Positions 45 to 19,307 of a DNA stretch of 19,307 bases are shown one piece after another. The number at the start of each line of letters is the position of its first letter. Position 1 is the first letter of the stretch. The stretch comes from a virus. The stretch lies in IMG/VR virus record IMGVR_UViG_3300045988_034549, positions 1 to 19,307 of that record; one strand, given 5' to 3'. The position numbers were made by a program, and so were the translations under genes. The notes below the pieces were generated by a model. The model did not search any database. It saw only the letters and a program-made list of their open reading frames with translations, and was not told the DNA's origin.

Positions 45-1763
45 ATGAAAACTTATTTAAATAATTTAATCAATGAATTACCTACTAACTGCTTATTTGA
101 CAAAGGTAAAGTAGGATGTGGTGGAACTTCAATGGCTTTAGAGTGTGATAAGCCTTATGTTATATGTGTTCCATTTGTAAGTTTAGTTGAGAATAAACTT
201 GCTCAATATCCTAATGAAAGACGTAAAGAGCCTATTTTTGGAGTTTATCAAGGTGTTACTAAGACAGATATTGAAGCTTATATATCTTCAGTTAAATGCC
301 CTAAAATCATTGTTACTTATAATTCTCTTTATAAAGTAATAGAAGCGGTAAATCCTAAAGATTATAGCCTATTAATTGATGAATATCATATACTATTTAA
401 TCAATATAGTCTTAGAAGAGATGCAATTAAAGATGTATTAAAGACATATAGTCTATTTAAAGAATATACATTTATGACTGCAACTCCATTAGAAGATGAA
501 TTTGTTTTAGATGAATTGTCTAAACTGCCATTAGTAAAACAAGAATGGGATGATGTTATTGAGACTAAAGTTCAGACTGTTAAATGCAAGAATGTAGAAG
601 CTTCCACAATTAAGCTTATAAATGGATTTTTAAGTGGGAATGTTGAAGGTAATGCTTATATATTTGTTAACTCTGTTGACTTTATAAAGAATCTTATTTT
701 AAAGGCTAAACTTACAGCAGATAACACAAGAGTAGTATATTCTAAGAATAATAGAACTAAACTGCCAATTCAGAATTCTTCAGTAAATGATGAACCTAAG
801 AAGATTAATTTGTTGACTTCTACTGTATTTGAAGGTTCTGATATTTATGATGAAAATGGAAGAATTATTGTAGTTAGTGATTCCTCTAAAGCTCAGACTC
901 TTTTAGATATATCTACTTCAATTCAACAGATTGCTGGTAGAATTAGAAATAGTAAATATTTAAATTGGATTACTCATCTTTATTCAGCCACAAGATATGC
1001 AGAGATAGATTATGATACATTTAAAAATAATACATTAAAGAATATTGAAGAAACAAAGATTGCAGTTGAATCATATAATCAGCTTCCAGAAGTAGCTCGT
1101 AAGAAGATTACAGACTTTACAAGTGACACATATATTCAAATTAATGAGGATTATACCTTTGAATTTGACCCAAATATGGCTAAAGTAGATATATTCAATT
1201 TTAAGGTTGCAAGAGGTTTATACTCTGTAAGAGTTAATCTTACTAATGAATATCTAAAGAATGGCTTTATAAAGGTTGCTGAATGTGAAGATAAATCTAT
1301 TAAGATAGACCTTGAAGCTCCTAGTAAGTCATTTCAGGAGCTTATTAAAGATGTAAGAGCTGAATGGGAAACTAAATTTAAAGTTGGAACTCCTATATTA
1401 AATGAAGCTCTAATTAAATATCCTTGGTTAAATGATGCAATTAATAAACTGGGATTTGAAAGAATGGCAACTTTGGGTTATTGCATTAAAGATATTAAAG
1501 AGGAGCTTGTTAAAATATCAGATAAAAATATGCCAAATAAGGTTGCCAAATTACTTACAAGAGATATTCAGAATGGTATGTTCTACAATTTAGCTTTATT
1601 GAAGAATAAGATTGCTGATGTATATAAGACTTTAGGTATAAAGAAAACTGCAAAGGCAACAGATATTGAACACTATTTTGAAGTTAGAAAATCAACTAAA
1701 ACTGAAAAGGATGTTAGAAGCAAAGGATACATTATTATTAGACCAAGATTCATATTTAAATAG
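45..1763 (+). CDS. SF2 (DExH-type) helicase, replication/early module
   Basis: Uninterrupted 572-aa ORF in the standard code. Motifs: Walker A-like GKVGCGGTS near the N-terminus, motif II LLIDEYH, motif III MTATP, motif V-like TSTVFEGSDI, motif VI QQIAGRIRN. All 4 Trp are TGG, there is no in-frame TGA, and the stop is TAG. The frame stays open from ATG 45 back to the window edge, so an upstream start cannot be excluded. Confidence 0.8.
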   Translation: MKTYLNNLINELPTNCLFDKGKVGCGGTSMALECDKPYVICVPFVSLVENKLAQYPNERRKEPIFGVYQGVTKTDIEAYISSVKCPKIIVTYNSLYKVIEAVNPKDYSLLIDEYHILFNQYSLRRDAIKDVLKTYSLFKEYTFMTATPLEDEFVLDELSKLPLVKQEWDDVIETKVQTVKCKNVEASTIKLINGFLSGNVEGNAYIFVNSVDFIKNLILKAKLTADNTRVVYSKNNRTKLPIQNSSVNDEPKKINLLTSTVFEGSDIYDENGRIIVVSDSSKAQTLLDISTSIQQIAGRIRNSKYLNWITHLYSATRYAEIDYDTFKNNTLKNIEETKIAVESYNQLPEVARKKITDFTSDTYIQINEDYTFEFDPNMAKVDIFNFKVARGLYSVRVNLTNEYLKNGFIKVAECEDKSIKIDLEAPSKSFQELIKDVRAEWETKFKVGTPILNEALIKYPWLNDAINKLGFERMATLGYCIKDIKEELVKISDKNMPNKVAKLLTRDIQNGMFYNLALLKNKIADVYKTLGIKKTAKATDIEHYFEVRKSTKTEKDVRSKGYIIIRPRFIFK

Positions 1764-2202: not shown

Positions 2203-2207
2203 ACAAA

Positions 2208-2240
2208 AAGGAGGGTTATTTGCCCTCCTTTTCTTTTTTA
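2208..2240. terminator. bidirectional rho-independent terminator between the convergent modules
   Basis: Perfect 8-bp stem aaggaggg (2208..2215) / ccctcctt (2223..2230) with a 7-nt loop. A T-run follows on the + strand (ttcttttttа-like tract 2231..2240). A T-rich tract (tttgttt) follows on the minus strand. It sits between the last + ORF (stop 2202) and the stop of the last minus gene (2241). Confidence 0.8.
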
Positions 2241-2810
2241 TTAAACATATCTTCACTTGAATCCTTTAGCTGTATTTGCTAATCCACCACATACTCTACT
2301 AATAGCTCCTCTATCAGTTCCTACAGATTTGGCTGCTTCTGTGCAACTTTCATACTCTTGAATAAAATTACCATCTAAATCATACTGAGCTACTTTACGA
2401 CATCTTTGTTTGTTATGAGCATCTACTTTAACTCTTCAAGATTCTGGGCAATTATGTTTCTTTCCCTTATTAGAATTAGACAGTTTCTTCTTTCATTCAG
2501 AATTAAATTTGACTCCGTAATTGCCTCCTTCTCCTCCAGGTTTCAAATTTAAACACATAGGATCAGTGTCCCATTTATCTCCAATTAGTTTGTATTCTAA
2601 TTTAGATAATTCATCTGCATTAGTGCAAGTTGCCAAAATAATCTTTTGGTATGCATTAGGGAATCTTTTGTAATAATTAGTAATAATCCTTCCTGATCCT
2701 TTATATGGATCTTTATTTATGTCTTTACCTCTATAAATCCTTTTCCCAATATAATACTTGCCTCTTAATGTACCTGCAGTTAAAATTATTTTATAACAAT
2801 AGTAAAACAT
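2241..2810 (-). CDS. GIY-YIG homing endonuclease with C-terminal DNA-binding domain (189 aa, 3 in-frame TGA)
   Basis: Track ORF 2493..2810 holds the GIY-YIG N-domain (YCYKI...KYYIGK). The same frame continues through TGA at 2493, 2436 and 2253 (tca on +) to TAA-TAA at 2241/2238. The read-through text is ...NSE-W-KKKLSNSNKGKKHNCPES-W-RVKVDAHNKQRCRKVAQYDLDGNFIQEYESCTEAAKSVGTDRGAISRVCGGLANTAKGFK-W-RYV. That is a typical endonuclease DNA-binding tail ending G-F-x-W-R-Y. Confidence 0.85.
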
Positions 2811-3262
2811 TATATAATAGTAAATTTCTGTCGTCTTTGCATTCCGTCTTTATTCTTTAATCCCAAGTGTATTCAACTTGCTATACCATTCTTAGGCTTT
2901 TCATATATCAACTGGTCTCAATTTAATTCTTCAATAGCTTCAGCAATCCAACTTTGGAATACTTTCATATTACCATTAATTGGAGATATATCTGCTGCAT
3001 ACCCTGTTAAATGAGCAGAAGTTGAAGATCCTCCCACTGCTTTATTAAGCTCCTTATTTCTAAAACCAGAGGAAATCCTGATGCCTGCGTTACCAAGCTG
3101 ATTGTCATCACAATACTTTGCCCATCTCTCTCTTATTGGGTCTAAAAGCTTCTCGACCAACTCTATCAGGTGCTCTGTTATACTCTCATCTGGAGTGTTA
3201 TCTATATGCTTAATTGAAGCAGTATCAGATCTTGTTAATTCTTCGAGTGTGAAATACTTCAT
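2810..3262 (-). CDS. peptidase M15 family (Peptidase_M15_3-like) peptidoglycan hydrolase, endolysin (150 aa, 2 in-frame TGA)
   Basis: Track ORF 2918..3262 contains SGFRNKELNKAVGGSSTSAHLTGYAADI (H-x6-D zinc motif). The frame continues through TGA at 2918 and 2873 as -W-DQLIYEKPKNGIAS-W-IHLGLKNKDGMQRRQKFTII. This restores the expected C-terminal W-x-H zinc ligand. Stop TAA 2810..2812 overlaps the next ATG (TAATG). Confidence 0.85.
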
Positions 3263-3420
3263 TATTTATATGAATTATGCAGTTTATAAAGATAAATAAA
3301 ATAGCACACTGCTCCAAATAACGTTAAACTAATAGTAATCCAAAAAGGAATTACTTTAATTAACAAAAATGCAATCATTAATAGTACAACTACTATTACA
3401 TATTTTAACCAATATTTCAT
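3262..3420 (-). CDS. small two-TM membrane protein, holin candidate (52 aa)
   Basis: ATG 3418..3420 to TAA 3262..3264 gives MKYWLKYVIVVVLLMIAFLLIKVIPFWITISLTLFGAVCYFIYLYKLHNSYK. There are two hydrophobic helices. It lies immediately upstream of the endolysin and is coupled to it by a TAATG overlap. It is too short for the ORF track. Confidence 0.55.
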   Translation of the reverse strand: MKYWLKYVIVVVLLMIAFLLIKVIPFWITISLTLFGAVCYFIYLYKLHNSYK

Positions 3421-3421
3421 A

Positions 3422-4078
3422 TTATATCTTATTTAAAATTATACTTATCTGTATTCCAACTCTTCTTAGATGTACTCAAGTATCATAAGGCATAGGTGTA
3501 TCACAGAATGATAAACCTAAAATGCCAATATCTTTATCCTCAGTCTTTAAATAAAATACTGCTATTTCATTCACTCCGTTGGATTTAAATGCATAATATA
3601 ATCTTGGATCATCTGCTTCTAAACTATCTATATTACCAAACCATCCATCATTCTTAGAAAACTCTATAATTGAAGTATAGTCAGATAACAGGAAGTCTTT
3701 ATAATGGCTACTTACAGATCGTATTCCTGGTTTAACTTCCTCGGCATTCATTACTCCATAAGTAAACGGAAGTCCTCCTAATCCAGTAGTTCCATTATGA
3801 TATTCAATAACCCAAGCTCTATCAGCATTTGTGCTTTGAAGCAATTCTTTAAGCTTATATTTAATCTTTAAAGTTGCTTCATTTCTTGCAATAGTTTTAG
3901 AATTGTGAGTTTGTTCAATATAGGTTACAACCTTATTATAAACAATAGAGGGATTAAGTGTAATAACCATTACATAGGATATAAATATTAATCCAATCCC
4001 TGCTTTAAATATCTTTAGTAATCCATATTTATCTACTCATTCTAATACCTTTCCAAACCAGTTTAATTTATTTTCCAT
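3422..4078 (-). CDS. N-terminally membrane-anchored protein of unknown function, lysis-cassette position (218 aa, 2 in-frame TGA)
   Basis: Track ORF 3476..3970 extends in frame at both ends. Upstream it runs to ATG 4076..4078: MENKLNWFGKVLE-W(TGA 4037)-VDKYGLLKIFKAGIGLIFISYV-MVITLN. Downstream it passes TGA 3476 (...PYDT-W-VHLRRVGIQISIILNKI) to TAA 3422..3424. It has one predicted TM helix followed by a soluble domain of about 170 aa. Confidence 0.7.
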
Positions 4079-4503
4079 TACATATTATCAGAACAAGTAC
4101 CCAGAGTATTGTCTACAGCTAAATCAACTCTAACAAATACTCCAGTACAAATATCTTTGAACTTCTGATAAAATGGAGTAAAAATTAAAGGATAAGAAAT
4201 ATCAACTTCTGGATATTGGTTATTAAATCGGTTAATTATATTAGTTAATGCTAATATTCCAGCTGATTGCTCTTCAAGCTGATTATTATCAGTTTCATCC
4301 CATCTTGCTATAAAATAGAGATTTAAAGAGTAAGTAATAGTATCCTCATCCATATTAAATGTATTTGGAGTTATATAAAATACATTATATTCAATAGTTG
4401 GGATACTATTAAGTTCATATATATCCTTACTTCCTACAAAATTAATATTGGGTTCTTCAAGAGCACAAGCTTTTAAATTGTTTATTAATTCAAAATACGT
4501 CAT
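4078..4503 (-). CDS. hypothetical virion/connector-region protein (141 aa)
   Basis: This is track ORF 4078..4605, trimmed to ATG 4501..4503 (MTYFELINNLKACALEEPNINF...). That ATG lies 1 nt after the upstream gene's TAA (4505..4507). There is no in-frame TGA. Any function is inferred only from its position after the portal. Confidence 0.6.
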   Translation of the reverse strand: MTYFELINNLKACALEEPNINFVGSKDIYELNSIPTIEYNVFYITPNTFNMDEDTITYSLNLYFIARWDETDNNQLEEQSAGILALTNIINRFNNQYPEVDISYPLIFTPFYQKFKDICTGVFVRVDLAVDNTLGTCSDNM

Positions 4504-4504
4504 C

Positions 4505-5188
4505 TTACTTACTCTTTTTATTGTTATCACTTGAAGGGAAATCATAAGCTCTTTGCAGAGGACCTTCACAAGAATTATATCTCCAACCTTTACCTCTAGC
4601 TCCACCTAACCAAATAGTACAAGATGAACTTGAATACATATTTGGATACATATCTTTAAGAGGTTTATAAGAATACAATTCAGGAAAATCATTATAATAT
4701 GTAATTACCCAATTTTGTAATCTCGTTTTAAAGAAATCTGCTTTATCTCTATAATATTTCTTAATAAGATTAACTTGGCTAATATCAGAAGTTAAATCTT
4801 TCTCATCATCAGTCCTCATAACCCCAAAGTTACTAAGCTTAAACGAAATAGGTATAGTAATCTCACTTAATACTTGATAAAGTAAATAAGGCTGAATATA
4901 GTAATCTAGCAATTCTTTATATCTATGATTTTCTGGGTCATCTATTGAAGTAGGATCATAAATAGGAGGTTCTATTGGATGAACTGGTTTATTTGGATCT
5001 TTTCAATCAATTACTAATTTCTGAATCTTTTCTAAGAGCTTAGTTCCAATTAATGACTGAAGCTCAATATCTTGTGCAAGTTTAATTGCTGACTGAAGAT
5101 ATTTACCAGAAACATTATTGTCTAAATTGGATTCTGATTTTATATAATCTTCAGATATTAATAGTACATTTCTATAATTATTTTCCAT
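4505..5188 (-). CDS. putative head-tail adaptor/connector protein (227 aa, 1 in-frame TGA)
   Basis: Track ORFs 5003..5188 and 4505..4912 are in the same frame. They are separated only by TGA 5003..5005 and an open stretch: ...KLVID-W-KDPNKPVHPIEPPIYDPTSIDDPENHRYKELLDYY... The N-terminal text (SGKYLQSAIKLAQDIELQSLIG) resembles gp6-like adaptor N-termini. This is motif memory only. Confidence 0.65.
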
Positions 5189-6270
5189 TATTCAACTTGT
5201 TTAGTATCAGCTTCATTAAGGCTAAATGGTGAAATTGTGATTGAATTCTGCATTCCAAAGATCTTATCAAATGAATCACAAATCTCTTTCTGAATAGGTC
5301 TAATCATAGTTCTATTATAAAGCTTGAATGAAGATTCAAATTCTTGCTCATTAAAACCAGTTGAATCTGAGTTAATTCCAAATAAGTTAGGATTAGCTCT
5401 GAAGGCACAGAATATTTGATCTCTGGTTCTCTCAGATAATGATTGATATTTCTCATCAAAATCATCAGAATCTAATCTTTCAATAGTAGTCTTATTTGCC
5501 TCATCTGCATTATATGAAATCAATATTCTGCCAGCATTCTGATAACCAGAGAACTTCTCATTAATATTCCTCTCAATCTCCTCTCTAATTTCATCTGTAG
5601 GTTCCCCATTATTAAAGTTAATAATAAGATTACCCATAAATCCATTATTGATGTTATTTAAATGGAATTCATTAATATTTTTCTCAGTTTCGCAAGATAA
5701 AATAGCAGCTCCATAAACAGGAATAGGATATACTCCTCTTGTTATATAACCTTTATTATAAAATATACTAGCTGGATTTTCATCCCCAGCTCCAAATTTT
5801 GGATATTTTATAGCTTTTACAGACCAAGCTGTCCAATCAGTTGCATAATATAATACATCATTCTTTTCGCTTGACCTTACATTCATAAAATCAATATGAT
5901 AGATCTCTGCAACTCTTCCAATCATATCTCTAATTACTTGGATAGCATAACCTCCAAATATCATCTTATCAATAGTGATTTTTCTCATTATATCAACTAT
6001 TGTTTCCCCTTTTTTATTTACAACTACTTCAAATCCTGGAGCATTACATTTAACATCATTACCAACAATAAAGTCAGCAGAACCATTAATAATGGATTGG
6101 AGAGTGGCAACATTTAAATATAAATCCCATAGATATAACGGATATTTGTTATCTTCTCCTCACATTACATAATCTTTTCCTCTTACTTTAGTTTCTGTAG
6201 GTAATACGATATTACTTGCAATAAATGGATCAATAGCACTTAACTGAACTTTTGTTTTATTTTCGCTCAT
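5188..6270 (-). CDS. portal protein (360 aa, 1 in-frame TGA)
   Basis: Track ORF 5188..5988 has a portal-like core (GFMGNLIINFNNG...FSGYQNAGRILISY...DQIFCAFRANPNLFGI). The frame extends upstream through TGA 6160..6162 to ATG 6268..6270: MSENKTKVQLSAIDPFIASNIVLPTETKVRGKDYVM-W-GEDNKYPLYLWDLYLNVATLQSIINGSADFIVG. This gives the W-G-x-D-N-x-Y-P N-terminal portal motif. Confidence 0.85.
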
Positions 6271-6805: not shown

Positions 6806-7822
6806 TTATGCTGACGCTAAAGTTCAGTTTTTAGATGTAGCTAATGATTTCTGTTCTTCAGTAAGTGCATTATAAACATCTGCTGCAAATGTAATAGTTT
6901 GAGATACTTCTCCAGTTAAATCAGCAGCTTTATTTAAAATGTTATCAATAGCTGCACTATTTAACGACTGGAGTAAAGATAAATTTAATTTCGCTCTTAA
7001 ATTTATAATACCTTCCATATCAGTTATTGATGTATTTGGAGATTCCCAACTATAAAAAGGCCAATTATTAAAGGACTGACCTTCATTTACACCTGTTAAA
7101 TCTCATTCTGGCAAAGTTGTAATTGTATCAGGTAAATAACTATAAGTACCTCCACATTCAAGATTAATAGATGATCCTACTAATTCAAACTTAATATCTG
7201 GGAGAGTAGTAATAGTGGATGTTAAATTGGCAAAAGTGGCATTAAACACAACATACGGAGTATCATTTTCTTCATCTCTAATAATTATATGATTGCATAC
7301 AACATTAGAAGAATTAAACATTTGACTTAAATCATATCAAGCAGTATTAGTTTGTAGTATAATTGTATCTAATGTTAAAGCATTAGCATTAAAACTACTA
7401 AACATATTATTGCCATCGCGTATAGTAATTTCCTGTGGGAAATCTATTTGATTTATTTTAGCATTACTCAACATACCCGAACAATCGTAATTTAAATCTG
7501 TATTTCACATAGAAAACAGATTTATATATGCATTAGGAGACTGCATATGCGAAAAAAAATTTCTCGTACTTGTAAAATCAGGTAAATCAAAGATAATCTG
7601 ATTTACTTGATTATCAGTAGGACTAGAATATGCAAATGTTAATCCATAATCATTTAAATTAATCTTTCCTCCACCACCTCCAGAAATCTGTCCTATCTTA
7701 TCTGCATAGCTTCTAAAGGTATCGGAATCTGATACAGCAACACCTTTAGCTACAATAGCATCTTTAATGGCACTCTTAGTACCTTCAAGATACGTTAATT
7801 TATCAGAAATTGTATTTGCCAT
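6806..7822 (-). CDS. DUF285/BspA-like repeat tail fiber or receptor-binding protein (338 aa, 4 in-frame TGA)
   Basis: Track ORFs 7505..7822, 7103..7321 and 6824..7018 share one frame. I checked every intervening codon and the only interruptions are TGA at 7505, 7337, 7103 and 6824. Fused text: ...NLFSM-W-NTDLNYDCSGMLSNA...TNTA-W-YDLSQMFNSS...TTLPE-W-DLTGVNEGQSFNNWPF...EEQKSLATSKN-W-TLASA, ending at TAA 6806. The N-terminus (MANTISDKLTYLEGTKSAIKDAIVAKGV) looks like a phage-fiber N-terminus. Confidence 0.8.
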
Positions 7823-7823
7823 A

Positions 7824-8477
7824 TTAGATTACTTCACCATTAATTGTATCAAGAGTAGTTGAAATATTACCAATCTGAGCTTGAATAGCTGAAATTTCTC
7901 CATCTAACTCTGTCATCTTTGTATTATATGTATCTGTAGTTACATAGTTTGATAACTCATTTTTATCTGCTTTAAGTGCAACTTCATCTTTAGTAGCTAA
8001 TCCAGATACATCAGGAATCTTATTCTCTACAGCTGTAAGCTCTTCTTTAGTAGCAAAATCACTAGTATCAGGAATTTCTGCTTTAGTTGCATAATTACTT
8101 AAATCTACAGATAGTTGCAAACCTTCTCCATTTCTATGTAAAGATAGAGGTTGATTAGCTTGGAATACTTCCATCTTAGAAGTTTCTAACTCCTCAACTT
8201 CTCCTTTAAGATTAGTAATCTCAGTATTAATTGGAACAAGTTTAGCATCAATAGATTGATCTACTAAAGGAGGAACTTGATCTTCAATACTTTCTGTTAC
8301 TTTAGTATTAATTAACTCTTCTGCTTTCTCCTCAGAAATGTAATTACCTTTAGGTTGAAATCTCGCATCTGCTTCAATCTTTGTATAAGAACCAACTGGA
8401 AGCTGAGCTGTCTCAATACCACATTTCTTACTAACATAGAAGGTCTGAGTATTCTTAGTATTCTTTAATATAATCAT
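7824..8477 (-). CDS. coiled-coil tail fiber protein (217 aa)
   Basis: Intact ORF with a TAA stop. It has reiterated x-ATK-x-E modules (NYATKAEIPDTSDFATKEELTAVENKIPDVSGLATKDEVALKAD) and a heptad-like C-terminus. There are no Trp codons. Confidence 0.65.
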   Translation of the reverse strand: MIILKNTKNTQTFYVSKKCGIETAQLPVGSYTKIEADARFQPKGNYISEEKAEELINTKVTESIEDQVPPLVDQSIDAKLVPINTEITNLKGEVEELETSKMEVFQANQPLSLHRNGEGLQLSVDLSNYATKAEIPDTSDFATKEELTAVENKIPDVSGLATKDEVALKADKNELSNYVTTDTYNTKMTELDGEISAIQAQIGNISTTLDTINGEVI

Positions 8478-8485
8478 AGTTTTTA

Positions 8486-8707
8486 TTATTTAAGAGATTC
8501 TTCAATCGCCTTCTCAGCTTGTTCTTTATAAACCCTGTCTTGTTCTAGGGATATTTCTCTTAGATGAGTTAAATCGCAATCTAATGGACAAATACACTCT
8601 TTAAATGAGTTATACCCTTTAATATCCATTTCGTCTTTATAGTTAGTCAGAAGCATACTATCTTCAGGCTTAACTACTTGATACTTTTCTTTAATTTCAA
8701 CTTTCAT
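8486..8707 (-). CDS. small hypothetical protein (73 aa), possible fiber assembly factor
   Basis: Intact ORF with a TAA stop, packed 1 nt after the upstream gene's stop. It contains a Cys cluster (CICPLDC). Any function is inferred only from position. Confidence 0.5.
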   Translation of the reverse strand: MKVEIKEKYQVVKPEDSMLLTNYKDEMDIKGYNSFKECICPLDCDLTHLREISLEQDRVYKEQAEKAIEESLK

Positions 8708-8708
8708 A

Positions 8709-9635
8709 TTAGTATGTTACTGACCAGCCTTTACTGGTGATTTGTGATTTTTGTTCCTCTGTTAATGAATTGTAAACATTCTCTGCAAGTTTTAGAACTC
8801 CAGCAAGTGATTCTCTTGGAGTAGCTAAATTATTAATTATATTCTGTACCGATTGATTAGTTAACTTTGGGCTATCTTCAAAATTTAATCCAGCAACGGA
8901 GTTAGTAGTAAAGCATTTTCCTATATCTTTAAACCCTCCAACATTTTCTAAATTAGATAAACCATTAAATGTAAGACTTAAATATTCCCAAGAATATGCA
9001 TCATATAAAGGCATAGTAGTTAATGAAGTACAACCATCGAATAATCTGCTTACATTAACTGTATGAGTTACTAAATAATCCCTATGAGGAAATGTTATAT
9101 TTGGAGCAGTAATTAAAGATCTACAATTTCCAAACATCCAGTTATAATTATATATCTTAGAACCATCAAAATCTCCTATAATAGTAGTTAATGAAGTGCA
9201 TCCTTGTAAGGTACAATAAAAACCTCCAAAATTATTTAATAGTCCTAATTCATCTTCTCCACCTTCAACCATTCCAGTATCAAATGTAGTTAAATCAGCA
9301 CAACTTTGAAAAAGTCTCATAAATACTACCTTATCATCATTAGATGCAGGAACATTGAATTTTTTGTAATCCTCGTTAGTAACTACAGCAGAACCAGTAA
9401 ATGCAGAGCTATTTGAAGTATTTGGATAATATCAGCTTTTTACACTGTCTATATTACAATCCGTTACAGGTTTATCATCTAATAAAAGTATTTTAACTTG
9501 ACTTCCAAATACTGGGTCTATAAAGGTTATAGGATTACAAGGATCAATAGGCCAGACTTTGGTACTGCCTACATAAATGGCAGTACCTTGTCTGTTACCT
9601 ACATAAAAAGCTTTTAAATTATCTCGAATATTCAT
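8709..9635 (-). CDS. DUF285/BspA-like repeat receptor-binding protein, paralog of 6806..7822 (308 aa, 1 in-frame TGA)
   Basis: Track ORFs 9432..9635 and 8709..9320 share one frame and are joined through TGA 9432..9434 (...DSVKS-W-YYPNTSNSSAFTGSAVV...). LRR-like repeats are present (LQGCTSLTTI, FGNCRSLITAP, FDGCTSLTTMP). The C-terminus VYNSLTEEQKSQITSKGWSVTY parallels that of the 6806..7822 gene. Confidence 0.8.
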
Positions 9636-9636
9636 A

Positions 9637-12249
9637 TTACTCTACAATTAAATATTGAGTATTTGGATCTTTGCTTGAAATAGCATCATATTCGGACTGA
9701 GTTACCACAAGAATAGTATGAACTTGTGGTTGAGTTCCACTTCCATAAGTAACTGGATTAGAAACACTCTCAATATCTATATTTCCACTACCTAACAAAC
9801 TTTCTCCATTAACTGTCTTGATATTTGTTCCGCTAACTAAAGTATCTTGTTTATTTCCTAATCCTGCATTTAATTCAGTTTCCGTAACATATTCATCAGG
9901 AATAGAAGTTAAAAATCCACTATCATTAGTAAGCTCAGATGTCTTAGTTGGTATACCTAAATCTGATAAACTCTTATTACCACTAAGTTCAACAGAATTA
10001 ATCTGAGGTTTATTTGTTAACTGAGTATAGTCAGTAGTCCCTCCACCTCCAGATATTTCAAGATTACCTTCTCCTAAAATACTTTCACCATTAATAGTCT
10101 TTATATTAGTCCCAGAGACTAATTGCTCTTGATAACTATGATAACTAGTATCTGCTGATACTCCAGTTGGAGTAATAGTAGTTTGAACTACAGTATGATT
10201 AGCTGTAGTACTTTCAAAATGGAAAGTAGCTTGAATATTTTCTCCTGAAACAAAACATACTTCTGGAGCTGCTATATCACCATAACCTAGAATATTTACA
10301 TAATAAAGCTCAAATGGTGTTTTATTAGCTATAGCATTCTTAACAGCAGCGAAATCTCCAGAAAGATGAGTAGTGGAATTTATAAATAGAAATGGAATAT
10401 TAGAACCACTTTCAATTTCTATATTACCTTCTCCAAGTAAAGACTGACTATTGATTGTTTTGATATTAGTTCCACTTACAAGCAAATCTTGCTTAGTAGC
10501 CATCTCTTTATCAAGAGAATCAATCTTATCTCCATCTTCTTCTTGTTTTGTTTTAATAATTGATATATCTGAAGTATTAGTTGCTACTTGAGTAGATAAA
10601 GATTCTACCACAGAAGAATCAGCTTTACCAGCAAGTTCTGTTTTTGTTGCATAATCTCCTACAGGCTGTTTAGTAGCAAGCTGCTCATCGACATAAGTCT
10701 TATCTGCTTTACCTGCTAAATCTCCAGAAACCTCTGCTTCAGTTACAAAGTTAGAATCATTAGTAAGCTCACTAACTTTAGTTGGAATATCACTCTTTAA
10801 AGCATAATCTCCTTTATCTTGTTTTGCATCAATCTTACTTTGTAAAGAAGATCTTAGAGTCTCAATTTCCTCATTAACTGAATCGTTAGTTGCATAATCA
10901 CCAACTGGTTGGTATCCAGATAAATCTACAGATAATTGTGATTTATCTTCATTAAAAGCTAATGGAGCTTGTGGAGTAAATACACCTTGCTTAGCTGCAA
11001 GTTTCTCATCTACTTCATCTTTAGTATATCCTTTATTAGTAAGATCAACCTCAGTAACTTTAACAGTCATATTACCATTATTTACTAAGATTGCATTAAT
11101 AACTACTAATACACCATTATCTTGAAAATAATAGCCATATAAATCAATAGTTTCGGGATGTTCAATAGTTGCAACAGGAATAACTATAATATCACCTTTA
11201 TATGTAATCTGGCAGAATAAATAGAAGTCCAGATTAGTTCTAATAAAGTCATAGATATGTTTCTGTCTTACAGGATCATTCTCATCTAAATTAAGTAAGA
11301 AATGATTCTCAAAAGCAGAGATTACATTATCTATAATAGATATATTCTTTCCTGCTGTAAGCGTTTCCTGTTTTGAAGCTATCTCTTTATTAATAGCTGT
11401 ATTTAAAGCATCAATTTCAGCTTTGGTATATTTATCTGCTAATTGTGCATATAGAGGACCATTAACAATACCAGCTTGATTAGTCTCTGTATTATATATT
11501 GGAAGTTCAACTGCTTTTCCAGTTTGATTGCCAAATACAGGAGCTAAAGTAACTTTAGATGGGACTGATTGAATATTAATGGCAGGTACAATTGAAGCTG
11601 CTCCAGATAATTCAGTTCCATTTAAAGATGGTTTGTTACGAATAGTATTATAATCTGCAGAAATAGTATTCTCTTCAATTACTATACCGTCACCTTGGTT
11701 TAATTTATTCTGTTTAGAATTTAATGCACTTTCAGTAGCTTCTTTTGTAAGATAATTATCTTCAACTCATTTTTCAGTAGCATATCCATCTAAGCTACTA
11801 ATAAACCCACTATCATTAGTTAATTGTGAAGTTTTTGTTGGTATCTCAGATTTATCGGCTTTATTGGTAACTGCATCTGAAATTTCAGTTGTAACCTCTT
11901 CTTTAGTTGGATAATCAGCTAATCGTTCAGTTATCTGATTATCAATATTTTCAGCACTTGGAATAGTACTCTTTATTTGCTCTAACTCAGAATTAATAGT
12001 AACAATATCTTCAGATGACGCTAATCCCAACTCTTCTGAAGTCATATTACCATTTAACTCAATGCCATTGATTTCAGGTTTATCCTGAAGATCAAAATAG
12101 CTATTAGTAGCTAACTGAGAACCATCCATAACCTTAACTTCATCATCCTTGTCAATAACAATAACTTTAGTCACATTTGACTTATCTATTGTTTCGACTT
12201 CAAGGACATTAAGATAAGGAAGAATTGTCTTTTCAGTTTCGTTTGCCAT
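9637..12249 (-). CDS. long modular tail fiber protein (870 aa, 1 in-frame TGA)
   Basis: Track ORFs 11767..12249 and 9637..11070 are in the same frame. I translated 11071..11766 codon by codon. It is open and has no ATG/TTG/GTG, which explains why the track has no ORF there. The only interruption is TGA 11767..11769 (...LDGYATEK-W-VEDNYLTKEATESALNSKQNKLNQGDG...). Fiber motifs recur throughout. Confidence 0.85.
9769..9849 (-). repeat. in-frame coding repeat, copy 3 (QDTLVSGTNIKTVNGESLLGSGNIDIE)
   Basis: One of three diverged copies of the L-V-S-G-T-N-I-K-T-(I/V)-N-x-x-S-(L/I)-L-G-x-G-N-(I/L)-(E/D)-I module within the fiber gene. Confidence 0.85.
10054..10128 (-). repeat. in-frame coding repeat, copy 2 (EQLVSGTNIKTINGESILGEGNLEI)
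   Basis: Same module as at 9769..9849 and 10411..10491. A Gly run (SGGGG) follows it. Confidence 0.85.
10411..10491 (-). repeat. in-frame coding repeat, copy 1 (QDLLVSGTNIKTINSQSLLGEGNIEIE)
   Basis: Same module as above. The nucleotide similarity is visible, for example ccttctcc(a/t)a...actttc / agactg...attgat / attaat. Confidence 0.85.
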
Positions 12250-12289: not shown

Positions 12290-12330
12290 TATAAACAAAA
12301 TAAGGGGCAAGTAAATTAATACTCGCCCCT
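12290..12330 (-). terminator. rho-independent terminator after the capsid operon
   Basis: GC-rich hairpin aggggcaag (12303..12311) / ctcgcccct (12322..12330) with one mismatch and a 10-nt loop. On the minus strand TTATTTTGTTT follows. It starts 10 nt after the TAA at 12340. Confidence 0.8.
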
Positions 12331-12339
12331 CTTCTGTTG

Positions 12340-12864
12340 TTAAGCACCTACAACACTTTGAATAGCTTCAGCACTCAACTCATAAGGATATGATTCAGAG
12401 TCAGTAGCTAAAGTCAGCGTATAAGCGTTCTGATCACCTTTTGCAGTACCAGTAACACCCGTACCAGCGGAAGCGCTTACATAGTCATCTTTTCCTAAGA
12501 ACCAGTATTTGCCATTAGAATCTTCTACAACAACTACAAGTTGTCCAATAGAAAGAGCAGCAATCTCGATTCTTTTCTTAGTCTCCATCTTTGTAAATAC
12601 AAGAGCAAGCTCATTACTTACATAGTTGGTTCCTGCAGTTTCGTCAACGTTCAATGTTGAGGTTAGAGAACCAGTACCTTTGCGGAATTGGTAATTATAC
12701 CATTTAGCATCTGCTTCAAGAGTAATAGCTGAGATTTGATTAGTCTCATCATCTACAGTTACACTCTTAACATTATCGTACTGAGTAATCCATACCTGTT
12801 TGATACCACCAAGCGAAGATTCGCAATCCAGGGTAATACCAGCGATAGTTATTAAACAAGCCAT
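12340..12864 (-). CDS. abundant structural protein, possibly major tail (tube)-like (174 aa)
   Basis: Intact ORF directly after the major capsid gene and before a strong terminator. Its G+C is visibly elevated, like the capsid gene. All 3 Trp are TGG. The text (SIGQLVVVVEDSNGKYWFLGKDD...GTGVTGTAKGDQNAYTLTL) resembles tail-tube-type proteins. This is motif memory only. Confidence 0.45.
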   Translation of the reverse strand: MACLITIAGITLDCESSLGGIKQVWITQYDNVKSVTVDDETNQISAITLEADAKWYNYQFRKGTGSLTSTLNVDETAGTNYVSNELALVFTKMETKKRIEIAALSIGQLVVVVEDSNGKYWFLGKDDYVSASAGTGVTGTAKGDQNAYTLTLATDSESYPYELSAEAIQSVVGA

Positions 12865-12902
12865 ATAATTTCAATCTTATTTAAAGTTAAACTCTATTGA
12901 AA

Positions 12903-13808
12903 TTAGGCTTTGGCACCAAGAACTACCTCATCAGGGAATGCAACCTGTACGCCAGCGTTAAATTCAATAGCTAATCTAAATTCGCGGAAATCTTGTGAAT
13001 ACCACAATTCAAACTTCTCTTCATCGTTCATCATATCGCAACCATAGAAGAAGTTCTTATCTAACTGACCAGCAACAATCTTATCAGTTCCATTAAGACC
13101 ATTAACAGCGATTACTTTAACCTGCGAACCAGGAAGCATAATCTCACCATTAAGATTCTCACCACTATAGTGGTAGTAGTTCTTAGCAACTAACTCCTGG
13201 ATAAATTTACGGAAAGTATCACTGCCAACTAAGATAGAAGCACCATCCAGAACCTTCTCAGGAATAGCGTTATAAACAGCCATAATGTCATCATAAGCAG
13301 ATGCTCCAGTAATTTCTACATCAACAACCCCATCAGCAGCACCAAGGATCTTTAACAGACCATCAAAATACTTCAGGTTATTTGTTTCAGAAGTAGTATC
13401 ACCCTGCCAAATAGCAGTCTCAATAGCAGCCTTAACATTCTCAACTACTGCATTTACGAAATCCTCTTCAAAAGGAAGCGTCTTCTGACCAGCAGCTACT
13501 CGTACTTGATACTGAGTCCAGTATTTAAGCATCTCTTTATCACAATATGCCATATTGATCTTAATATTACCAGTAGCCAGAATTCTCTGAGAAAGAGTCT
13601 GAGTTCCAGCTTCATCCCAACCACAAGCTAGGCCATCGCCAAACTGAATAGCAGTTGATAACAGGTTAAGAGCAGCACTAGTTTTGATGTCAGTTTGAAG
13701 ATTGAACAACGAAGCACTCTTAGCCTTTAATACAGCCTCTTTAATAAGAGGAAGACGTCTCTGCTCTACATAAGCAGTAAGACTAGTCATTACAGGACTA
13801 TTTGCCAT
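12903..13808 (-). CDS. major capsid protein, HK97-fold type (301 aa)
   Basis: Intact ORF placed after the protease and scaffold genes. Capsid-like text is present (AIETAIWQGDTTSETNNLKYFDGLLKIL, ...FELWYSQDFREFRLAIEFNAGVQVAFPDEV). All 4 Trp are TGG. G+C is visibly higher than in flanking genes. Confidence 0.85.
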   Translation of the reverse strand: MANSPVMTSLTAYVEQRRLPLIKEAVLKAKSASLFNLQTDIKTSAALNLLSTAIQFGDGLACGWDEAGTQTLSQRILATGNIKINMAYCDKEMLKYWTQYQVRVAAGQKTLPFEEDFVNAVVENVKAAIETAIWQGDTTSETNNLKYFDGLLKILGAADGVVDVEITGASAYDDIMAVYNAIPEKVLDGASILVGSDTFRKFIQELVAKNYYHYSGENLNGEIMLPGSQVKVIAVNGLNGTDKIVAGQLDKNFFYGCDMMNDEEKFELWYSQDFREFRLAIEFNAGVQVAFPDEVVLGAKA

Positions 13809-13830
13809 AATTTTATAAATAATTTAATAA

Positions 13831-14433
13831 TTAACCAATAAAGTTTTTAAGCTTTTTATCAATAACAGGATTACCAGTCATTATTGAAGCTTTGCCTTCT
13901 ATCTGTTCCTCAGCTGAAAATGCAGCACTCATTTTGCTCATCTTTTCAACCGTCTTTTCTGTAGCTTCAGATTTACCCTCTAATTCAGCTACTTTCTTAA
14001 CAAGCTTATCAACAATGTCATAAAGCTCATTAATTTCGCGATGAATTGCATCAATTGCATCAGTTACAGTTTCTTTGTCACCATCAGTAGCTACTTCAGG
14101 ATCAACTGGCTCTTCAGCAGTTTCTACCTTGCGTTTTCCACAAGCAGCATCAACTTCTGCTTTAGCTGCTTCTTCTGGATCAACCTCAGCTTTAGGATCA
14201 GTTACAGACTCTACTTTACCGTCTTTAACAACAATCGTCTTTCCATCCTCAGTTACATACTCACCATCCTCAGCAGGTTTGTATTCTCCGTTCTCATCCT
14301 GAACATATACATCCATACCAGCGCGTAAGTCTTCATCTGAATCCCAAGTAAGTACTGCCTTATCAGTTTTAATATCACTGAACTTTGCAAGCATTTTAGC
14401 CAATTCAAGCTTGATTCTTGTGAATTTGCTCAT
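13831..14433 (-). CDS. scaffolding protein (200 aa)
   Basis: Acidic, Lys/Glu-rich protein with a coiled-coil-like C-terminal half (INELYDIVDKLVKKVAELEGKSEATEKTVEKM). It is located between the prohead protease and the major capsid protein. Confidence 0.7.
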   Translation of the reverse strand: MSKFTRIKLELAKMLAKFSDIKTDKAVLTWDSDEDLRAGMDVYVQDENGEYKPAEDGEYVTEDGKTIVVKDGKVESVTDPKAEVDPEEAAKAEVDAACGKRKVETAEEPVDPEVATDGDKETVTDAIDAIHREINELYDIVDKLVKKVAELEGKSEATEKTVEKMSKMSAAFSAEEQIEGKASIMTGNPVIDKKLKNFIG

Positions 14434-14446
14434 TTAATTAATAATT

Positions 14447-15040
14447 TTAATGTTTAACTCTTTTTATCTTCTTAATCATATTAAGGATCTCTTTTATTTC
14501 GTCATATTCATCAGACTTTCTCTCTAAAGTAAATAAACCTTCAATTGAGAACCCTTTAAACTTACCAGCTTTAATTGCATCTCAAATAACTTGATTATCT
14601 ACTTTATAAGTGGCAAATAAAGAACCATCAGGAACATCCTGGAATTCAACTGGAGATATTCCTCTATTAATATCCTTTACATAGATTTCTTGTAGAGTAA
14701 TTCCATTTAAATCAGAATCTTCTAAATGTTCAATATTTACATCTGTAGTTCTTTTATCATACAGCATCTTCTCTGCCATTTTACGAAGAGTTTCCTTATC
14801 ATACTGTATGTAGTATTCTCCGAGTTTCTCATCTCGTCTGAAAATTGGAGTATCACTTAACATTAAGCAAGATGTTACTAAATGCTTATCTTCATCCATC
14901 GAGAACTTCTGAGAATTACTAAAAGCAACCCAGTTAACTTGTGTAGCTGGTTTACTTGTTAAAGCAACATATTCTATTCCATCACAATCATCAGTAATCA
15001 CTACCTGAAATAATGGAAGATCATTATAAGTAATTTCCAT
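14447..15040 (-). CDS. prohead protease, XkdF-like (Peptidase_S78_2-type) (197 aa, 1 in-frame TGA)
   Basis: Track ORF 14582..15040 continues through TGA 14582..14584 as ...YKVDNQVI-W-DAIKAGKFKGFSIEGLFTLERKSDEYDEIKEILNMIKKIKRVKH, ending at TAA 14447. The W-x-x-(I/V)-K-x-G-x-x-x-G-F-S-I-E-G segment is the characteristic C-terminal motif of this family. Confidence 0.75.
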
Positions 15041-17921: not shown

Positions 17922-19307
17922 TAGATTGTAATATTTTTAACAGTATCTTCTGTTAGTGTTAAATTCTCTGTATATTTAACTGTTCCTGTAGGTCCATCAG
18001 TCACTTCAAATTTAAACTGAACACCTTTTTGAGCATATATTCTATAATTTCCATTATCCTGCATATAAGCCACATTCAAGAAGTTATCGTTTTCTGTAAG
18101 TATCTGATTTACCCCAGTTGGTATAGTGCCACTTGGAGTTTCTAATTTGCCTGTAATAAGAACAGCTTTATTTGGGTCTGGAGTTTGAGTAAACATACAT
18201 TTAGGACCATCTACGCCTCCTTGTTTATAAAGACTAAAGTAGAAACTTCTTTGGTCATATTTAGTATTCTCATTATAAGTAACTGTTAATTCTGTTTCTC
18301 CAGGTTGCCCAGATTCAGGTGTAATGCTTACAATTTCATTTGGACTATATCATCCTAATTCTCAAGGAATATTAGAAGTAACTGTAATCTTTTTAGTCCC
18401 AGCTTTATAATCTACAACTGGATCTGAATCATCAAATGATATATATTCACCTAGATTTTGAATTCCAGCTAAATAACTATTAATATCTTGAACTTTAATA
18501 AATTCACATCTAACTGTAGAATCTGAATTAATATCATAAGCATCAATCTTATTAAGTACCCAGTAAGAATCTTCAAAATAATAGAACTGTCTAAGTAAAT
18601 CATACTTAACATCTAAATCATCCAATCTTACAAAGCAGGTAACTTTTTTAGTATTTACATCAAATTGATCATTATAAAATTCACTCCAGAATCTACTATA
18701 AATAGTACTTCCGATATTATAAGTTATATCATCAATATAAATCTCTTGTGGTAATCCAAAATCTCAAGAAGCAGTAACATTAGAGGACGAAACGGTATAC
18801 CTTGTAAATTGAGGTAATACAGTTCTCTTTATAGCAATTTTATTCCCCCTAATATCTTTCTCACTTTTAGTAGATATATAACACATTTCCTGATCATTTA
18901 ATATGTTCATTTCTGTAAGATCATCTGTAATTCAATATGTTACTTCATTTCCTTTTACATCAGTTAAAGGAACATTACCGTTAAAGAATACTAGGGATTG
19001 AGAGATATCCTCTAAAGATTCCTCATTACCATCAATTGAGAAAAATACATTTTTGGCAAATATATCATTACCTGCGATTTTATATCATTCTGTGGTTTTA
19101 GAGGGATCTATAAAATTAGCTCCGTATAACTCTTGATCTATAGTCTTAAGTTCAGTAGTGCTATTATTAAATAATGTATAGGTAATATTATCATTCATAA
19201 ATGCAGGAACTACAAGGGAAGAAGAATTGTAAAAATTTCTAAAATATTTATTTCTCCATCTTGCAGAAACTATATTTTCATATATATTATCACTATACAG
19301 TTCAGTT
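17921..19307 (-). CDS. large virion (tail-associated?) protein, 5' end outside the window (at least 461 aa, 5 in-frame TGA)
   Basis: Track ORFs 18362..18625 and 17921..18196 share one frame. That frame is open from the window edge (19306) to TAA 17921..17923. Its only interruptions are TGA at 19085, 18932, 18764, 18362 and 18350. The C-terminal part looks like beta-sandwich/Ig-like modules (ITPESGQPGETELTVTYNENTKYDQRSFYFSL). The stop overlaps the tape-measure ATG (TAATG). Confidence 0.75.

Follow-up and report, generated by a model that had tools for sequence, protein, structure and literature searches.

Phages with reassigned stop codons are common in gut viromes and were reportedly described by Ivanova in 2014. 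Alternatively coded gut phages, including small clades of the Garnet, Amethyst and Topaz type, were surveyed by Borges et al. (2021/2022; 10.1101/2021.08.26.457843), who found a TGA suppressor tRNA in only 35% of code-4 genomes. That work stresses early versus late gene blocks, enrichment of the recoded codon in lysis genes and its depletion in integrases; the text of the preprint does not mention the capsid. In crAss-like phages, the major capsid protein (MCP), TerL and portal genes carry reassigned stops, and these are used as a diagnostic (Yutin 2021, PMC7886860).

The 19,307 nt analysed here (the window) make up about two thirds of the genome of a siphovirus-like human-gut phage that resembles the phages of the Borges survey in its low G+C, its size of ~31 kb, its in-frame TGA codons read as Trp and the absence of TGA as a stop. 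As in those phages, closely related members of one family differ in code (standard, TGA or TAG), gene families differ in how far they use the recoded codon, a replication-type gene is compatible with the standard code, and, as in most code-4 genomes of the survey, no suppressor tRNA was detected. However, almost the whole genome is recoded here, and the depletion of TGA lies inside the late block, is graded with virion copy number and includes a putative holin. The pattern thus refines the already known gene-class bias of recoded phages. With crAss-like phages (Yutin 2021; Peters 2022, PMC9523058) our phage shares the gut habitat, probable Bacteroidota hosts, late-gene recoding and a presence of suppressor tRNAs that does not always match recoding, but here the MCP, scaffold and tube genes are kept free of reassigned stops; since the crAss-like MCP carries them, the avoidance rule is not general. 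Phages of Mycoplasma and Spiroplasma, whose hosts natively use code 4, also read TGA as Trp, are low in G+C and need no suppressor tRNA of their own. In contrast to them, this phage encodes a peptidoglycan endolysin, uses TGA as the minority Trp codon and has relatives in Bacteroidota and gut MAG contigs. As codon-adaptation theory expects, the MCP, scaffold and tube genes carry a classical signature and a poorly decoded codon is avoided in step with expression; here, however, it is a reassigned stop that is avoided, one whose decoding competes with termination, other non-optimal codons are avoided far less, and a non-adapted helicase is affected too.

TGA encodes Trp in almost all genes of the long minus-strand block. 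Coverage by ORFs of at least 100 aa rises from 0.67 under code 11 to 0.93 under code 4, and the two longest ORFs go from 572 and 477 aa to 922 and 870 aa, the latter pair being coherent under code 4 and fragmented under code 11. The same alignment columns switch between TGA and TGG, and TGA aligns with Trp of standard-code relatives, for example at a conserved C-terminal Trp in the KWRYV motif of the homing endonuclease. TAA ends 18 of 19 genes and TAG the remaining one, and TGA is never a terminator. By ORF restoration, TGA-Trp alignment and the absence of TGA terminators alike, this is a stop-codon-recoded (code 4) phage. Code 25, in which TGA is Gly (CPR hosts; PMC10746230), is ruled out because TGA aligns with Trp.

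The features of the window are given below, with TGA/TGG counts for the window and, where stated, TGA shares across the clade.

45..1763, plus strand: SF2-helicase-like protein of 572 aa with a Walker A motif (GCGGTS) and a DEYH box (0/4).
2205..2233, both strands: bidirectional terminator (11-bp stem, 5 GC pairs, T-runs on both strands) separating the converging helicase unit from the end of the minus-strand unit.
2241-2810, minus strand: homing endonuclease (3/1; clade-wide 71%, 27/11).
2810-3262, minus strand: M15 endolysin (2/2; clade-wide 42%).
3265..3420, minus strand: putative holin of 52 aa with two TM segments, upstream of the endolysin, its role suggested by position and hydrophobicity; TGA-free.
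4078..5188, minus strand: two head-tail connector-like genes, a DUF6712 protein (4505-5188; PF20459 on an ortholog) and g4078 (4078-4605); clade-wide 15% and 12%.
5188..6270, minus strand: portal protein (phrog_11226 2e-30, PF04860; 1/3; clade-wide 20/143 = 12%).
6806..12249, minus strand: fibre and LRR (DUF285-like) receptor-binding genes (clade-wide 47% for LRR fibres and 79%, 64/17, for the 870-aa fibre).
12302..12331, minus strand: intrinsic-terminator-like hairpin and T-run (12-bp stem, 6 GC pairs), directly 3′ of the tube gene and closing the scaffold-MCP-tube block.
12340..12864, minus strand: 174-aa protein, probable major tail-tube protein (0/3).
12903..13808, minus strand: probable HK97-type MCP, 301 aa (0/4; GC 39.7%, GC3 0.31).
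13831..14433, minus strand: acidic coiled-coil protein of 200 aa, scaffold-like, with the MCP on one side and the S78 protease on the other (0/1).
14447..15040, minus strand: prohead protease (Peptidase_S78_2, PF14550 6e-9; 1/1; clade-wide 4/53 = 7%).
15153-17921, minus strand: tape-measure-like protein (3/6; clade-wide 45%).
17921 to 19307 (window end), minus strand: C-terminal part of a ~1118-aa tail protein (5/2; clade-wide 42%).

The 301-aa gene is probably the MCP. All 11 family members examined match phrog_11320, 8 of the 11 match phrog_1623 ('virion structural protein', head and packaging; best 2e-11), and there are matches to phrog_10 (major head protein, 1.9e-5) and, weakly and in one member, to PF05065 (0.006). 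The gene order protease-scaffold-MCP-tube backs the assignment by synteny. A PDB profile search with the MCP and tblastn against 50,697 GenBank phage records gave no match, and a single-sequence AF2 model was unusable (pLDDT 39). The 200-aa protein is scaffold-like by position and composition, and its N-terminus matches phrog_24921, a family that also covers the protease. The 174-aa protein has no match in Pfam and no sequence match in the PDB. Its AF2 model, built from 16 sequences, is of moderate confidence (pLDDT 67, pTM 0.69); in a Foldseek search of the PDB, its top matches are the tail tubes of SPP1, lambda, Milano, 7-7-1, Mu and GTA (probability 0.97-1.0), and tail-tube entries make up 10 of the 13 top matches (0.92-1.0), all at weak E values of ~1e-3 to 6e-2 and TM scores of 0.32-0.44. 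The model thus suggests that this protein is probably a major tail tube of the siphovirus type. The exact tube protein is present on 255 contigs, and of the 633 tube homologs found the best 120 were listed; gut samples that carry the phage include ERZ27272553 and SRR10499473. As in the window, a hairpin with a T-run follows the tube gene in 20 of 20 relatives examined, with unrelated stem sequences and dG of -11 to -23 kcal/mol. Elsewhere, the helicase is the sole large plus-strand gene and the only replication-type gene that we recognised; it is SF2-helicase-like by motifs read in its sequence, with no match in Pfam, PHROG, NCBIfam or PDB. The endonuclease and endolysin region (2241..3262) has matches to phrog_314 and PF08291.

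The eight Trp codons of the scaffold, MCP and tube genes (hereafter the trio) are all TGG, as the initial annotation had noticed, and so are the four of the helicase. TGA is common elsewhere in the late block, where the other minus-strand genes hold 24 TGA and 28 TGG (46% TGA), and few minus-strand genes lack it; even TerL and promoter-proximal genes contain TGA. Zero of eight was held to be unlikely by chance, and a one-sided Fisher test gives p=0.012; because the block favours G-ending two-fold codons (46% vs 28% elsewhere), however, the composition-adjusted probability is ~0.07. The choice of genes was also post hoc, so that the single-genome statistic is not convincing. The claimed elevation in G+C is also present, at 38.3-39.7% in the trio against 26.7-35.8% in other genes, although 15251-15750 likewise reaches 40%; since the elevation is a property of the whole family, 'island' is a misnomer. 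Across the genome TGA is under-used, at 37% against 72% A-ending codons among the other two-fold codons. We observed no bias in the position of TGA within genes, and the +4 base after TGA shows no readthrough-favouring context, only a small shift (C 5% vs 10%, p=0.025) opposite to the leaky UGA-C context.

The related genomes turn this weak single-genome evidence into strong evidence. Among unique sequences across the clade, we counted TGA/TGG of 0/148 in the MCP, 0/19 in the scaffold, 1/98 in the 174-aa gene and 1/109 in the helicase. The TGA share is 7% in the protease, 12% in the portal and 12-15% in the connectors, whereas all other families lie at 27-100%, with tail, fibre, terminase, endolysin and homing-endonuclease genes at 32-79%. 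TGA use therefore depends on gene class, and the recoded codon is avoided, to ~0-1%, in the genes for which the initial annotation had proposed maximal or early translation. Virion copy numbers are textbook stoichiometries, in which the portal and connectors are 12-copy head parts; against these assumed numbers the TGA share gives rho=-0.87. That the trio encodes the most abundant virion proteins is likewise suggested by layout, fold and textbook stoichiometry, and the layout points to early expression of the helicase. Like the early genes of the Borges-type phages, the helicase is free of the recoded codon. Tail and fibre genes, the endolysin and the endonuclease tolerate TGA as had been proposed, but lysis genes do not do so uniformly because the putative holin is TGA-free. 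Its family (family 23) holds 0 TGA and 33 TGG despite 93% A-ending Lys/Glu/Gln codons, and with the endolysin at 42%, about average, and the membrane protein g3422 at 55%, the lysis-gene enrichment described by Borges et al. is not seen here.

Other recoded lineages repeat the pattern, so the capsid orthologs are also without the recoded codon, TAG-recoded relatives included. The trio counts are 1/6 in lineage L035, 0/3 in L036, 0/5 in L039 and 0/4 in L100, and in the TAG-recoded lineages they are 0/21 (L098) and 1/22 (L092) against 16-23% elsewhere. In a stratified exact test on these six lineages, with the window excluded, we observed 2 recoded codons against 15.5 expected (P=3.5e-7), and in the MCP tree the recoded lineages are interspersed among standard-code ones. 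Parsimony on gene trees gives the same picture within the close clade, with expected flips taken from the Lys/Glu/Gln A-G flip rate of the genes. The four TGA-free genes show 1 TGG-TGA flip against 8.6 expected (P=0.0017), in a clade that is phylogenetically shallow and where per-gene P values are only 0.03-0.07 singly. All other genes are at or above expectation (18 vs 12.8; 54 vs 35.7 in TGA-tolerant genes), so flip suppression is confined to the MCP, scaffold, 174-aa and helicase genes.

ARAGORN, run on the window, on the complete genome and on more than 50 relatives, found no tRNA and hence no suppressor tRNA-UCA. Rfam returned nothing relevant (suppressor tRNA, ribozyme) at the gathering threshold or at E up to 1. 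No release factor, aaRS or other code-switch gene was found among the scanned proteins of the genome or of the more than 50 relatives, an observation that counts against the explanation favoured below. Because no decoding machinery was found, the incomplete or temporally regulated suppression that had been proposed is something we infer. The host is probably a standard-code Bacteroidota, to judge from indirect hints: prophage relatives lie in Bacteroides and Pedobacter contigs, with others in further gut MAG contigs, the phage encodes an M15 peptidoglycan endolysin, and Shine-Dalgarno motifs are absent (0 of 18). Exact look-up of the MCP returned free phage contigs only, all of at most 31 kb, and a contig scan for relatives found mostly ~30-kb binned phage contigs; contigs of 193 kb and 148.6 kb also carry relatives, with the fetched flanks all phage. 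The Bacteroidetes-type promoter motif (TTTG...TAnnTTTG) is absent from the minus strand and the intergenic regions examined. No known cell-walled gut lineage reads UGA as Trp natively, and the gut RF39 lineage uses UGA as a stop (PMC8629427).

The codon pattern suggests that a costly or not always available reading of the recoded codon lies behind the avoidance of TGA. Our main reading, to which we give a probability of about 65%, is purifying selection against TGA that scales with translational demand, together with a need for the helicase to be readable in the standard code. Decoding of TGA in the infected cell would be costly, or unavailable from the start of infection, and TGG-to-TGA changes would therefore be removed more strictly the more of a protein is needed, or the earlier. 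Removal would be essentially complete in the highest-copy genes (scaffold, MCP and tail tube) and in the helicase, which is transcribed separately, partial in the 12-copy portal and connectors and in the protease, and TGA would be near neutral in low-copy tail and fibre, terminase, lysis-enzyme and selfish endonuclease genes. We infer that the cost may come from incomplete or slow suppression that competes with release factor 2 in a standard-code host. Small genes beside the divergent promoter region carry TGA (13/2 in an 81-aa HTH and 18/18 in a 145-aa family, clade-wide); if these are early genes, TGA cannot simply be unreadable at that stage. The graded and convergent depletion in the highest-copy virion genes, in TGA and TAG lineages of one family, is population-genetic evidence of a decoding cost and shows which proteins the phage cannot afford to risk.

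It is possible, but we think unlikely, that the recoded stops are instead leaky and that their number per gene tunes translation, each TGA or TAG passing only part of the ribosomes through partial readthrough by host machinery, with no true code switch. If so, virion stoichiometry would follow from codon density: the capsid, scaffold and tube genes would carry none, the genes for 12-copy parts about one, and low-copy tail genes, like those for lysis enzymes and regulators, several. The setting is one in which nearly everything appears to come from a single long operon, with no suppressor tRNA and no Shine-Dalgarno sites (0 of 18).

Unlikely as well is a host that constitutively reads UGA as Trp, an undescribed lineage that uses code 4 or carries a suppressor, in which TGG would be the optimal Trp codon favoured at high expression, and neither incomplete suppression nor timing would be involved. 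The lack of a phage suppressor tRNA, the presence of TGA in nearly all minus-strand genes down to promoter-proximal ones and TerL, and the ordinary high-expression codon bias of the trio are all consistent with such a host. Yet the helicase, whose codons are not adapted across the clade (C-ending 0.15, G-ending 0.30, 70% A-ending Lys/Glu/Gln), still has a single TGA, and the TAG-recoded sister lineages avoid their recoded codon too. Native code-4 genomes of similar G+C are not known to under-use TGA, whereas this genome does. A peptidoglycan endolysin also fits poorly, since the code-4 bacteria known so far lack a wall or live as endosymbionts and RF39 stops at UGA, and relatives are located in standard-code Bacteroidota contigs.

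Alternatively, TGA could be positively selected because it gates or attenuates translation in low-copy, regulatory and lysis genes, on the model of the Borges-type control of late genes or lysis timing, and the trio and helicase would merely lack that selection. This would account for families above the A-ending baseline (the 81-aa HTH; a 53-aa family, 13/0 clade-wide; the 870-aa fibre; the homing endonucleases) and for the excess of Trp flips in TGA-tolerant genes. Lysis-gene enrichment and integrase depletion have been published for other recoded clades (10.1101/2021.08.26.457843). However, a trio that is simply not positively selected should sit near the mutational expectation of 20-50% TGA, not at 0-1%, and a lack of positive selection would not push flips below the Lys/Glu/Gln rate. 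Most tolerant genes lie under the A-ending baseline (32-47% vs 67-73%), the putative holin lacks TGA altogether and the endolysin reaches just 42%. As a general account we regard the gate as improbable, although it can coexist with purifying selection for a few families.

Composition is excluded as the source of the pattern, and the chance that a G+C-richer block merely prefers G-ending codons, so that TGG is simply expected, is very small. The block does favour such codons: besides the window value that gives ~0.07, the MCP has 66% G-ending Lys/Glu/Gln codons clade-wide, its gene has the highest G+C and strongest codon bias of the window, and the genes of the trio hold the top three ranks for C-ending NNY codons, a high-expression bias, with G-ending Lys/Glu/Gln also enriched. 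But the tube is 56% A-ending with only one TGA, the scaffold is 63% A-ending with none, and the helicase is A+T-rich, with 28.4% GC and no TGA in the window and, across the clade, 27.5% GC, 70% A-ending codons and 1/109. Across families the TGA share correlates with neither A-ending Lys/Glu/Gln nor GC nor GC3. A bias towards G+C would favour TAG with its final G, yet this codon is avoided in the trio of the TAG-recoded relatives, where that of L098 is even A-ending-rich (86 A to 16 G). Under purifying selection, the G+C of the capsid block would share a cause with the avoidance of TGA, namely high expression acting through C- and G-ending codons and Ala/Gly/Val-rich proteins, without being its cause.

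Equally remote is an account by history, in which the head Trp codons are unmutated ancestral TGG after a recent code change or the module was newly taken from a standard-code phage. All four MCP Trp columns are also Trp in standard-code relatives, such relatives are found at 67% MCP identity (L037), and the block differs in G+C from its flanks; inertia nevertheless fails because columns that are Trp in standard-code relatives have turned to TGA in tail genes (38-71%; 71% in the tape-measure-like and 38% in the ~1118-aa tail protein) and scarcely in head genes (0-11%). Head genes do show Lys/Glu/Gln A-G flips, at 0.75-1.5 per column, but no Trp flips, and TGG is kept among the window lineage, L035 and L036 at 68-69% MCP protein identity, where synonymous sites are presumably saturated. 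Recent horizontal acquisition, raised by the initial annotation, is ruled out by the relative G+C elevation of MCP, scaffold and tube in every relative, whatever its code (standard, TGA or TAG) or genome G+C, together with the high-expression codon bias and block borders that carry no integrase and no tRNA. No MCP of at least 89% identity comes from a standard-code genome, the TGA-free genes do not form a single run, with the helicase 10 kb away, and the block has TGA-rich neighbours on either side.

The phage is an abundant human-gut model with many public contigs and is suited to proteomics and ribosome profiling. Gene calling under code 11 handles TGA- or TAG-free capsid and tube genes correctly, so that such phages can be detected by marker genes while the rest of the genome is mis-annotated.

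The standard bacterial code breaks up the genes of the window (19,307 bp, 31.4% G+C), and reading TGA as sense yields a tight gene array. From code 11 to code 4, the longest ORFs grow from 572 and 477 aa to 922 and 870 aa, and coverage by ORFs of at least 100 aa rises from 0.67 to 0.93. Since TGA aligns with the Trp of standard-code relatives and shares its alignment columns with TGG, we assign code 4; the same Trp columns exclude code 25. Gene stops are TAA (18) or TAG (1), with no TGA. The window matches IMG/VR contigs of ~31 kb, from samples that include human-gut metagenomes, and its probable major capsid protein (MCP) and helicase are 100% identical in the related loci L001 and L059, respectively. 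Using the window plus L059, we read the following layout.

Features of the window (coordinates, strand, description)
45-1763, plus, SF2-helicase-like protein (Walker A and DEYH motifs seen in the sequence); sole large plus-strand gene
2205-2233, both strands, bidirectional terminator with an 11-bp stem, at the convergence of helicase unit and minus-strand block
2241-2810, minus, homing endonuclease
2810-3262, minus, M15 endolysin
3265-3420, minus, 52-aa two-TM protein (putative holin), upstream of the endolysin
5188-6270, minus, portal
12302-12331, minus, strong hairpin with a T-run, resembling a terminator, directly after the tube gene
12340-12864, minus, 174-aa protein
12903-13808, minus, probable MCP
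13831-14433, minus, scaffold-like protein
14447-15040, minus, S78 prohead protease
15153-17921, minus, tape-measure-like protein
17921-19307, minus, C-terminal part only of a tail protein of ~1118-1150 aa, running past the window end

A few tiny ORFs follow the helicase on the plus strand, where the unit closes at its terminator, and all other genes are on the minus strand. Their order is small regulators and an HNH endonuclease, TerS, TerL (Pfam Terminase_6N/6C), tail proteins of ~730 and 1118 aa, tape measure, protease, scaffold, MCP, 174-aa gene, variable fibre/LRR genes, portal, connector-like genes, a membrane protein, the two-TM protein, endolysin and homing endonuclease. The helicase had no database match and is called from its motifs. 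The MCP was assigned from PHROG head families, a weak PF05065 match in one relative, and synteny; a single-sequence structure model of it was unsuccessful. Sequence libraries returned no match to the 174-aa protein. Modelled by AlphaFold from 16 homologs, it reaches moderate confidence (pLDDT 67, pTM 0.69), and Foldseek's best PDB matches to the model are tail-tube proteins throughout (SPP1, lambda, Milano, 7-7-1, Mu, GTA), at high probability yet with weak E-values and TM scores. It is probably the major tail-tube protein; taken as such, it makes the MCP, scaffold and tube (the trio) the three assembly proteins that a siphovirus needs in the most copies.

The initial annotation had reported that the trio's eight Trp codons are all TGG, and its counts are exact: the trio has 3+4+1 TGG and 0 TGA, the other minus-strand genes have 24 TGA and 28 TGG, and the helicase has 0 TGA and 4 TGG. 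Only its per-gene count for an ORF at 17921-19198 is partial, because this is the C-terminal part of the ~1118-1150-aa tail protein. The trio is also G+C richer, as had been noted (38-40% vs 27-36% for other genes). Within the window alone, the trio differs from the rest with a one-sided Fisher p of 0.012. The trio block prefers G-ending two-fold codons (46% vs 28% elsewhere), so the probability of 0 of 8 rises to ~0.07, and this single-genome statistic is modest for a trio picked after looking. Genome-wide, TGA is under-used at 37% of Trp codons, while other two-fold A/G codons end in A in 72% of cases.

We compared 54 loci around MCP relatives, 29 around helicase relatives, 30 taken from bacterial or MAG genomes, and another 9 found by exact-protein look-up.

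TGA use at Trp codons by gene (unique sequences, close clade with MCP at least 89% identical)
MCP, 0 TGA / 148 TGG
Scaffold, 0 TGA / 19 TGG
174-aa gene, 1 TGA / 98 TGG
Helicase, 1 TGA / 109 TGG
Protease, 7% TGA
Portal, 12% TGA
Connectors, 12-15% TGA
Large tail proteins, 32-42% TGA
Endolysin, 42% TGA
Tape measure, 45% TGA
TerL, 46% TGA
Fibres, 47-79% TGA
Homing endonuclease, 71% TGA

These data reveal purifying selection against the recoded codon, a specific effect in four genes and a graded one in the rest. The share of TGA declines as copy number rises (rho=-0.87, n=12), the copy numbers being textbook assumptions. Across families it has no significant correlation with the A-ending share of Lys/Glu/Gln codons, GC or GC3 (rho 0.17, -0.17 and -0.26), and the helicase, though A+T-rich (27.5% GC, 70% A-ending), is TGA-free but for one codon. 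Trp columns of standard-code relatives are now TGA in 38-71% of tail-gene cases vs 0-11% of head-gene cases. With A-G flips at conserved Lys/Glu/Gln columns setting the expected rate, the helicase, MCP, 174-aa and scaffold genes show 1 TGG-TGA flip vs 8.6 expected on each gene's own tree (P=0.0017), and flips in other genes meet or exceed expectation (18 vs 12.8; 54 vs 35.7).

Recoded and standard-code lineages (the latter L037, L084-L086, L110) intermingle on the MCP tree; at least three TGA groups (among them L035, L036, L039, L100/L101) occur, plus the TAG-recoded L098 and L092. Three codes interspersed within one MCP family imply repeated code changes at short evolutionary distance. Recoded codons in the trio are rare in the TGA lineages (L035 1/6, L036 0/3, L039 0/5, L100 0/4) and in the TAG lineages (L098 0 TAG/21 Gln, L092 1/22), and with the window left out, a stratified exact test finds 2 where 15.5 are expected (P=3.5e-7). 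Because TAG ends in G, high G+C in a gene should favour TAG; that it is avoided, even in L098 with its A-ending-rich trio, separates an effect of the recoded codon from one of composition.

The G+C elevation itself is real and belongs to the gene family: in relatives of all three codes, the MCP, scaffold and tube genes are richer in G+C than the genome that carries them (L110, standard, 44.8% vs ~32-37%; L084, standard, 39.7% vs 31-37%; L098, TAG, 37.2% vs ~30%). Recent horizontal acquisition, which the initial annotation had named as something that would overturn its reading, is thus unsupported. All three codon positions contribute, and the trio ranks first to third in C-ending NNY codons (0.24-0.35 vs 0.09-0.17 in most genes). 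In codon-usage theory, such enrichment is a signature of highly expressed genes. A hairpin occupies the same post-tube position in 20/20 relatives examined, including standard-code and TAG-recoded ones, with unrelated stem sequences. Given this codon signature and the position-conserved terminator, the trio block resembles the 3′ end of a transcript made in abundance.

The reason for the selection is one that we infer. The most economical reading has two parts: TGA decoding would be slower or leakier than TGG decoding, at a cost scaling with the number of protein copies needed, and the separately transcribed helicase would have to be translatable before, or without, TGA decoding. Its weak point is that no decoding machinery was found: searches for a suppressor tRNA, ribozyme, release factor or synthetase in the genome and relatives were negative, and no tRNA of any kind or relevant Rfam match occurs in the window, L059, L002 or >50 related loci (~31-kb genome). 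Nearly all minus-strand genes nevertheless use TGA as sense, even small ones adjoining the divergent promoter region. Neither +4 context nor TGA position within genes supports leaky termination.

A Shine-Dalgarno-like 4-mer occurs in the 21 nt upstream of the start in 0/18 window genes (chance ~14% per site), and regions upstream of gene starts are 62-100% A+T, which suggests a Bacteroidota-type, SD-independent host. Absence of such motifs is typical of Bacteroidota. Prophage relatives sit inside Bacteroides and Pedobacter contigs. Together with the missing Shine-Dalgarno motifs, the peptidoglycan endolysin and the fact that no cell-walled gut lineage is known to read UGA as Trp (PMC8629427), this indirectly suggests that the host uses the standard code.

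Published work already covers recoded gut phages, an early/late code partition, a bias of recoded stops by gene family (towards lysis genes, away from integrases) and a mismatch between recoding and suppressor tRNAs (10.1101/2021.08.26.457843; PMC7886860). Our pattern, itself well supported, is a variation on this known phenomenon. A late-block depletion centred on capsid, scaffold and tube and graded by copy number was found in neither source, and the former does not mention capsid (10.1101/2021.08.26.457843). The MCP of crAss-like phages does carry reassigned stops (PMC7886860), in contrast to that of the window clade (0/148). Whereas lysis genes are enriched in published recoded phages, those of the close clade show no special enrichment, and the putative holin is TGA-free (0/33 clade-wide) despite 93% A-ending Lys/Glu/Gln codons, beside an endolysin at 42%.

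In a few families TGA use (TGA/TGG) lies far above the A-ending baseline: an 81-aa HTH protein (13/2; L059 7915-8157), the 870-aa fibre (64/17; window 9637-12249), homing endonucleases (27/11; window 2241-2810) and a family of 53-aa ORFs placed on no reference locus (13/0). Positive selection or gating may explain such high TGA among regulators and selfish genes.

Every public contig with the exact window MCP is <=31 kb, and the exact tube protein is present on 255 contigs. Relatives also occur inside very long contigs (L017/L079, 148.6 kb; L119, 193 kb); gene geometry in the 148.6-kb contig fits >1 phage genome length and may indicate a concatemer or scaffolding artefact rather than a prophage. 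A GTG-started ORF (4078-4605, minus) shares ~100 nt (4505-4605) with the 3′ end of gene 4505-5188; its true start is probably an internal ATG (MTYFEL...), making its coordinates uncertain. The tube-to-portal region is hypervariable among otherwise near-identical genomes, and the paralogous LRR/DUF285-like fibre genes at 6806-7822 and 8709-9635 (minus) have a common C-terminal tail (...YNALTEEQKSLATSKNWTLASA and ...YNSLTEEQKSQITSKGWSVTY). Insertion sites of GIY-YIG and HNH/NUMOD homing endonucleases differ between genomes (window 2241-2810; L119 9212-9979, in the MCP-tube gap; L116 17402-17923; L121 12805-13398 and 14472-15050; L122 1415-1894).
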